Part shown: positions 860 to 924 of the stretch, piece by piece
Layout of the letters: each line of letters begins with the position of its first letter
Position numbering within the stretch: position 1 is the stretch's first letter
Source: a phage
Sequence record: OR846392.1
DNA length: 1,089 bases
Reading direction: 5' to 3' (one strand)
Program-made: the position numbers and the translations under genes
The notes under the pieces: generated by a model
Told to the model about the DNA's origin: nothing
Databases searched by the model: none
What the model saw: the letters and a program-made list of their open reading frames with translations, nothing else

Positions 860-907
860 AGGTCGTTGAAATTAACTTCCTGTTACGATGAGCCGTTTCA
901 ACGGCCT
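860..907 (+). repeat. Imperfect inverted repeat / potential RNA stem-loop: arms 860-871 (AGGTCGTTGAAA) and 896-907 (TTTCAACGGCCT), 24-nt loop
   Basis: The reverse complement of 896-907 is AGGCCGTTGAAA, which matches 860-871 at 11 of 12 positions. The single mismatch (T863 opposite G904) is a G-U wobble in RNA. Core 8-bp perfect repeat is CGTTGAAA (864-871) / TTTCAACG (896-903). It lies in the spacer between the hydrolase stop and the finO start. Confidence 0.55.
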
Positions 908-924
908 GCAGCGCATATTTTCAC

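Follow-up and report, generated by a model that had tools for sequence, protein, structure and literature searches.

A probable sense-strand RNA stem-loop between a predicted lactonase gene and finO in F-like plasmids

Main

The REP hairpins between malE and malF, the hairpins of the puf operon and the RNase III sites of phage T7 are intercistronic stem-loops that stabilize or process the messages in which they lie. In F-like resistance and virulence plasmids, one gene for which such message-level control would matter is finO: FinO sets the strength with which these plasmids repress their own transfer, and sequences of the hydrolase gene orf286 reportedly raise the stability of finO mRNA. Van Biesen and Frost are said to have linked, in 1992, the concentration of finO mRNA to differences among F-like plasmids, and from the same work, as cited, plasmids that carry the hydrolase gene (R100, R6-5 and pO157 types) reportedly have more finO mRNA than those without it. 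A literature search returned nothing on the spacer between the hydrolase gene and finO, nor data on transcript ends or decay for such plasmids.

Here we analyze an inverted repeat in this spacer, its conservation among related plasmids and its likely role. The window is the whole stretch of DNA analyzed, 1,089 bases long, and positions refer to it unless another locus is named; loci and lineages other than named plasmid types are designated by L numbers.

Results

The hydrolase–finO junction

The window has 100% identity to pNZRM3614, a toxB-bearing, pO157-like IncF plasmid from E. coli on which traX, a 286-residue alpha/beta hydrolase and finO follow one another in this order. It contains most of the hydrolase gene, a spacer of 102 nt and the first 149 nt of finO (Table 1). 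The two genes are co-oriented on the + strand, and a consensus scan predicted neither a + strand promoter nor a + strand terminator in 839–940.

The 286-residue hydrolase beside finO is the 'orf286' of R100 and R6-5. It scores 511 bits, above a cutoff of 400, against the NCBIfam equivalog model NF047920 for UilS-family acyl-homoserine lactonases; UilS itself, a quorum-quenching N-acyl-homoserine lactonase, was characterized in Serratia marcescens in 2024 (PMC11633161). In about 3,000 plasmids a predicted lactonase lies between the transfer operon and the fertility-inhibition gene, a placement that seems so far to have gone undiscussed. Upstream of the window, overlapping the traX stop codon (L001 3900–3929), there is a promoter-like TGGGCA-18 nt-TATGAT with a preceding TG (extended −10), of which the diverged lineage L026 has a TG-n-TATTAT version; from its sequence, this site could give hydrolase and finO a promoter of their own, independent of the tra operon. 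Against Rfam (E up to 10), the full length of the window produced no match at the hairpin and a single weak match, to CRISPR-DR37, on the − strand inside the hydrolase coding sequence (569–600; 21 bits against a gathering threshold of 40, E = 0.62), which is almost certainly due to chance.

Table 1 Features of the window around the hydrolase–finO spacer
Feature	Position	Strand	Remark
Hydrolase gene	1–838; full gene, L001 3978–4838	+	
Hydrolase stop codon TAA	836–838	+	Ends the 286-aa alpha/beta hydrolase; NCBIfam NF047920
Lower-stem extension	855–857, pairing with 910–912	+	Only in the window's rare variant
Left arm AGGTCGTTGAAA	860–871	+	Core GGYCGTTGA common to all five lineages
Loop, 24 nt (23 in L026)	872–895	+	Length kept; sequence ~50% identical between lineages
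Alternative short hairpin GCCGT-TTCA-ACGGC	892–905	+	Overlaps right arm; minor conformer, probability ~0.003
Right arm TTTCAACGGCCT	896–907	+	Pair probabilities 0.96–0.996
AU-rich block CATATTTTCAC	914–924	+	Conserved in five lineages; candidate single-stranded endonuclease cleavage region (putative role)
Ribosome-binding region AAGGTCAGAG and finO start codon	926–943 (ATG 941–943)	+	Homology to hydrolase-less plasmids starts at 938

Distribution of the spacer

A search of PLSDB with the spacer found it in 2,139 plasmid records, essentially in one copy each and always at the hydrolase–finO junction; the pO157 type accounts for about 640 of them and the NR1/R100 type, 77% identical, for about 1,500. 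In hydrolase-less plasmids the match to the window starts only at base 938, so that the whole spacer, including the finO ribosome-binding region, came with the hydrolase insertion. The 54-nt traX–finO spacer of these plasmids shares only GTCAGAG with the spacer of the window, lacks the stem and has no significant structure (z about 0).

Look-ups among plasmids, protein clusters and metagenomes brought together five diverged lineages that carry the repeat: the pO157 type (sub-variants L008, L045 and L054/L055), the NR1/R100 type (variants L003 and L093), L005/L017 and L028, which have hydrolases 87% and 89% identical, respectively, and no finO downstream, and L026, whose hydrolase is 80% identical and whose gene order is traX–hydrolase–finO. 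Scanning genome contigs with the hydrolase protein gave only known spacer types or unrelated distant hydrolases, and a metagenome scan gave 80 loci, all at least 95% identical and within-type variants only. Further protein-cluster and plasmid look-ups added no spacer lineage, and a pattern scan of viral contigs for the arms produced chance matches only. The sequence of the window is a rare one: position 912 is G in typical pO157 sequences, with TT at 893–894 as well in a wider group. As the usual G912 abolishes the G855–C912 pair, the lower-stem extension (855–857/910–912) appears only in the fold of the window.

Several rearrangements surround the hairpin. In L004 (NZ_CP139855, 732–1500), an IS26 insertion has taken away the hydrolase gene up to a few bases short of the stop codon; the hairpin and finO are undamaged, which makes this locus a natural construct of hairpin plus finO with no hydrolase. 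Eight nucleotides (homologous to window 908–915) are deleted from L005 and L028, which brings the conserved ATATTTCC or ATATATCC directly against the stem; in place of finO both lineages have an ATGATGG start-like sequence, past which they share ~40 nt. About 1 kb past the hydrolase, L005 (3293–3868) and L017 (3242–3780) carry a gene of the ProQ/FinO family, a different one, convergently on the − strand.

The repeat in isolation

The arms at 860–871 and 896–907 form 11 Watson–Crick pairs and one U863–G904 pair around a loop of 24 nt, exactly as had been claimed from the letters of the window, and the distances given there, 22 nt after the hydrolase stop codon (836–838) and 33 nt before the finO ATG (941), are also right. 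A thirteenth pair, U872–G895, could extend the stem. Five of the 12 pairs are G–C, the stem alone contributes about −16 kcal/mol, and within the loop each lineage could form a further small helix, a different one each time. The fold of 839–940 has an energy of −25.3 kcal/mol (z = −1.99, equaled by 5 of 200 shuffles), the opposite strand of the spacer has z = −0.8, and equilibrium pair probabilities of the long stem are 0.90–0.996. For 840–940, the interval that the sequence-only reading had put forward for folding, z is −1.77. With z about −2, the fold of the window has only a marginal advantage over its shuffles. Repeats with 12-nt arms, at most one G–U pair and a loop of 3–40 nt arose in 20 of 1,000 dinucleotide shuffles of the window, and this rate of 2% is unusual in a single window and not rare across a genome-wide scan. 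In isolation, then, the repeat is only mildly unusual; what makes it convincing is solely its conservation in related plasmids.

Two details of the sequence-only reading required adjustment. The nearest T run, placed by it at 917–920 and 9 nt downstream, lies at 918–921, 10 nt after the stem. The short hairpin that it regarded as a mutually exclusive alternative is present (892–896/901–905) but thermodynamically negligible (~0.003); across the alignment 89% of its cells pair, and the NR1 type and L028 cannot form it intact.

Two further sequence coincidences fall on the repeat. AAGGTC occurs as a direct repeat in the left arm (859–864) and beside the finO ribosome-binding site (927–932), and GGCCT in the right arm could pair with either copy. 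A 16-codon upstream open reading frame (888–938) starts in the loop, crosses the right arm and ends with TAA 2 nt before the finO ATG; in NR1 the frame has a GTG start and an overlapping ATGA end, and in L026 an overlapping TAATG end. This frame does not explain the repeat: it has no ribosome-binding site, L003 has lost its start (GTA) and L028 has none, and its changes are non-synonymous, for which reasons it is probably coincidental.

Evidence for selection on pairing

In an alignment of 13 sequences from the five lineages, standard pairs make up 98% of stem cells, compared with 22–51% when the 3′ partner is slid by 1–3 columns. RNAalifold recovers the same stem from this alignment, and the minimum-energy fold of every lineage's spacer includes it (z from −1.15 to −4.26). 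The loop, by contrast, keeps its length (22–24 nt throughout the lineages) at an identity of ~50%. Between the window and L026, which are 40% identical at fourfold-degenerate sites and 57% identical over all third codon positions, the arms agree at 21 of 24 positions, the loop at 12 of 24 and the flanks at 44–62%, which puts the conservation of the arms above neutral. The sequence-only reading had staked its stem on conservation of the arms in related plasmids, and this is what the five lineages, with 98% pairing, display.

The changes that do occur in the stem have a direction. Pair 863:904 is seen as U–G, U–A and C–G, and pair 871:896 as A–U, G–U and G–C; both have moved between Watson–Crick types via a G–U intermediate. 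At all five positions with one-sided changes (904, 870, 871, 901 and 906) the outcome on the + strand is G–U, with A–C in none; among these changes are the polymorphisms within types, A871G in L054/L055 and C906T in L093. The hairpin is therefore stabler on the + strand than on the − strand, by 3.8–9.3 kcal/mol in 12 of the 13 sequences, L028 being the exception. By manual count from the pair table of the alignment, about 10 substitution steps fell in the stem and 7 of them preserve pairing, against a chance expectation of ~25–30% (p roughly 0.02). With a stem kept in five lineages around a divergent loop, one-sided changes that are all G–U and a stronger + fold, the earlier proposal of an RNA stem-loop on the sense strand is borne out, and these comparisons suggest that the repeat is probably a selected sense-strand RNA stem.

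Several properties of the alignment bound this conclusion. The covariation that had been looked for is visible in the two pairs that switch Watson–Crick type through G–U, and its formal signal is weak because the arms barely vary: 5 of 12 pairs are invariant, a single cell departs from the commonest pair at both of its bases, and the control by shuffling (117/500) is not significant. The sample consists of only five independent lineages, which are recombination mosaics, and a DNA- or RNA-binding protein may impose sequence-specific constraint on the arms. L028 has an internal A–A mismatch and the weakest hairpin of the set. The 100% identity of NR1-type spacers was rejected as evidence of selection, the flanking 300 nt being nearly identical as well.

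The loop has a pattern of its own. It differs between the window (872–895) and NR1 (L002 1542–1565) at 11 of 24 positions, where nearby third codon positions differ by only 17–21%; the NR1 loop is nearer to that of L005 (17/24) than to that of the window, and the first ~450 nt of the pO157-type and NR1 hydrolase genes are identical. On these comparisons, the loop appears to be either hypervariable or of separate recombination history.

Distant homologues and origin

Downstream of genes for hydrolases of ~70% identity, on Klebsiella, Salmonella IncC and Aeromonas plasmids, a compact, G+C-rich hairpin lies as far from the stop codon as here (z about −3); in L020 it is a predicted terminator. This hydrolase gene therefore usually carries a 3′ hairpin. 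MAFFT aligns the left arm of the window and the 5′ half of its loop with this compact hairpin, anchored at GTTAYGAT, which tentatively suggests homology to an ancestral compact hairpin. The distant homologues lack the complementarity of 860–871 with 896–907, so that it was derived in the F-plasmid clade, probably within the gene order traX–hydrolase–finO, and then retained.

Two lineages keep the stem without finO downstream (L005/L017 and L028), and remnants of the traX 3′ end stand upstream of the hydrolase gene in the finO-less L005, L028 and L022. Because the finO-less lineages descend from an F-like arrangement, their stem says little about whether it serves the hydrolase or finO.

Known classes of element

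Comparison with described elements removed several identities. A REP or BIME repeat was rejected, since the sequence occurs at a single place per record in almost all of the 2,139 records and has no Rfam match. An integron attC site was rejected, since the RYYYAAC/GTTRRRY core is not found and GTTGAAA/TTTCAAC stand at the loop end, in reversed order. A FinP-like antisense RNA was rejected as well: there is no − strand promoter or terminator nearby, the − fold is weaker, and U tail and Rfam match are both missing. A promoter that draws a −35 or −10 element from the loop, from CATATT or from the arms was rejected, as its spacings would be wrong and the 8-nt deletion of L005/L028 would break it; a single-strand promoter was rejected on architecture. 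An anti-Shine–Dalgarno switch, pairing GGCCU of the right arm with AAGGUC (927–932), was rejected too, since it would rest on a helix of just 5 bp that L028 and L026 have lost.

Discussion

The reading that we prefer, at a probability of about 0.45, is that of an intercistronic hairpin in the sense-strand mRNA that arrived with the hydrolase insertion and blocks decay or guides processing. The repeat is as the sequence-only reading described it, and the meaning given to it there is supported in part: formation of the stem and selection on its pairing have computational support. The setting is that of an intercistronic stabilizer, with co-oriented + strand genes (stop 838, ATG 941), no predicted promoter or terminator between them and a sense-strand stem-loop whose pairing is preserved in 98% of cells over 13 sequences, with weak covariation statistics. 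Because no terminator is found between the genes, hydrolase and finO would be co-transcribed through the 102-nt spacer, and the stem of 12–13 bp would form in this joint transcript. There it could be a barrier to 3′-to-5′ exonucleases, the marker of a processing site, or both. RNase E prefers A/U-rich single-stranded sites beside a stem, and CAUAUUUUCA fits this preference; cleavage in that AU-rich stretch (914–923) would yield a hydrolase mRNA with a protective 3′ hairpin and a separate finO message, decoupling the stabilities of the two. How stable and how abundant the two transcripts are relative to each other would then depend on the hairpin, which may in this way have an effect on finO.

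What this would mean depends on which of the two messages is served. If stability or processing of the hydrolase–finO transcript is under the control of the hairpin, conjugation rates in ~2,000 sequenced plasmids would be tuned by this small cis element; if it only protects the 3′ end of the hydrolase message, it would be routine operon architecture. Unless tied to control of FinO levels, the hairpin is of modest interest.

It is unlikely that the hairpin, together with the downstream UAUUUU, is a leaky intrinsic terminator or attenuator that meters read-through from the tra operon and the hydrolase gene into finO. Although the stem begins 22 nt past a stop codon, the usual place of a terminator, and is of ordinary terminator length (12–13 pairs, 5 of them G–C, in a range of ~5–14 bp with several G–C), G–C pairs account for only 5 of 12, and the loop measures 22–24 nt in every lineage instead of the usual ~3–8. 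A terminator has its U-tract 0–2 nt from the stem; in the finO-linked lineages ten mixed, partly G/C bases intervene, in the window GCAGCGCAUA, before UUUU is reached (918–921). The picture is closer to that of a terminator in L005 and L028, where AUAUUUCC or AUAUAUCC comes immediately after the stem, and in the distant hydrolase homologues, which have compact hairpins at the same place, that of L020 being a predicted terminator. At this locus the consensus scan finds none, and with a loop that is too long and no U-tract adjoining the stem, the sequence-only reading was correct in setting an intrinsic terminator aside.

We also doubt that the repeat is without current function, a decaying relic of the hydrolase's original 3′ hairpin whose conservation is only apparent, arising from related, recombining plasmids. 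Arms identical to those of L026 at 21 of 24 positions, despite fourfold sites at 40% and flanks at 44–62%, are not what such decay would leave; stem changes are biased towards those that keep pairs, and the complementarity, missing in distant homologues, was derived and then retained. The idea draws instead on the fold of the window, which hardly beats its shuffles, on the similar repeats in 2% of shuffled windows, on the MAFFT alignment, which sets the left arm and the loop's 5′ half against the compact hairpin that distant homologues have, and on the stem mismatch in L028.

Less credible still is a palindrome that acts as DNA, whether as a site for a dimeric protein or for recombination, or as a quasi-palindrome maintained by template switching and devoid of RNA function. 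Mismatches are all G–U on the + strand, which is A–C on the other strand, whereas a DNA process should lack strand bias. A distance of 36 bp between the centers of the half-sites is not typical of operators, the scan predicts no promoter for such a site to control, and inspection of the sequence showed no core-site layout of an integron attC site. A DNA-level site would, on the other hand, account for arms that are conserved as sequence (GGYCGTTGA/TCARCGRCC) more than they covary and for a loop that is constant in length (23–24 nt) and not in sequence; the region is a recombination mosaic, and template switching can produce apparent compensatory changes.

A similarly small chance attaches to an RNA operator for FinO, ProQ or an RNase III-like protein that would control translation or cleavage of finO, possibly as FinO autoregulation. 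Its appeal lies in the place, as a gene for an RNA-binding protein starts 33 nt downstream, in conservation of the stem at the sequence level, as expected of a helix recognized by a protein, and in flanks and loop that extend the helix to ~20–26 irregular bp per lineage, the size of an RNase III substrate. These extensions differ between lineages, however, and the 5 bp that the right arm could alternatively form with AAGGUC, close to the ribosome-binding site, do not survive in L028 or L026. Proteins of the FinO family bind preferentially to hairpins that resemble terminators and carry a 3′ U tail, and this tail is absent here. Tight binding by the FinO domain of ProQ needs a terminator hairpin with a 3′ oligo-U tail, and recognition of FinP by FinO is promoted by a 5′ extension and the 3′ U tail. 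The in vivo FinO ligands reported in Salmonella are FinP and RepX, which also counts against an operator in this spacer.

It is very improbable that the conserved stem presents its hypervariable loop as an allele-specific recognition element, in the manner of FinP/traJ or CopA/CopT, for RNA–RNA or RNA–protein contacts that couple lactonase expression to the FinO level; if it did, lactonase expression would be tied to FinO and hence to conjugation frequency, and a mechanism would be at hand for the reported rise of finO mRNA with orf286 sequences.

Set against known systems, the hairpin shares a little with each of three. Like Rho-independent terminators, with the compact hairpins after the distant UilS-like hydrolase genes (L018, L019 and L020) among them, it lies ~17–22 nt past the hydrolase stop codon and has a stem of similar length; it differs from them in its long loop, its greater number of A–U pairs, the lack of an adjacent U-tract and the lack of a prediction by the scan. 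With the stem-loops of FinP and traJ it has in common conserved stems, allele-specific variable loops and a fertility-inhibition neighborhood, but it comes without an Rfam match, an antisense promoter or terminator, or a 3′ U tail, and its − strand fold is the weaker one. The REP elements of malE–malF, the puf operon hairpins and the T7 RNase III sites likewise lie between co-oriented genes with no terminator, and they share with the hairpin of the window a stable sense-strand stem-loop, an AU-rich neighbor and preserved pairing. Unlike REP, the hairpin is confined to a single locus and belongs to no repeated family, and for a stabilizer of the REP, puf or T7 kind its loop is unusually long (22–24 nt) and hypervariable. 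It is plausibly a so far undescribed member of this familiar class of operon RNA hairpins.
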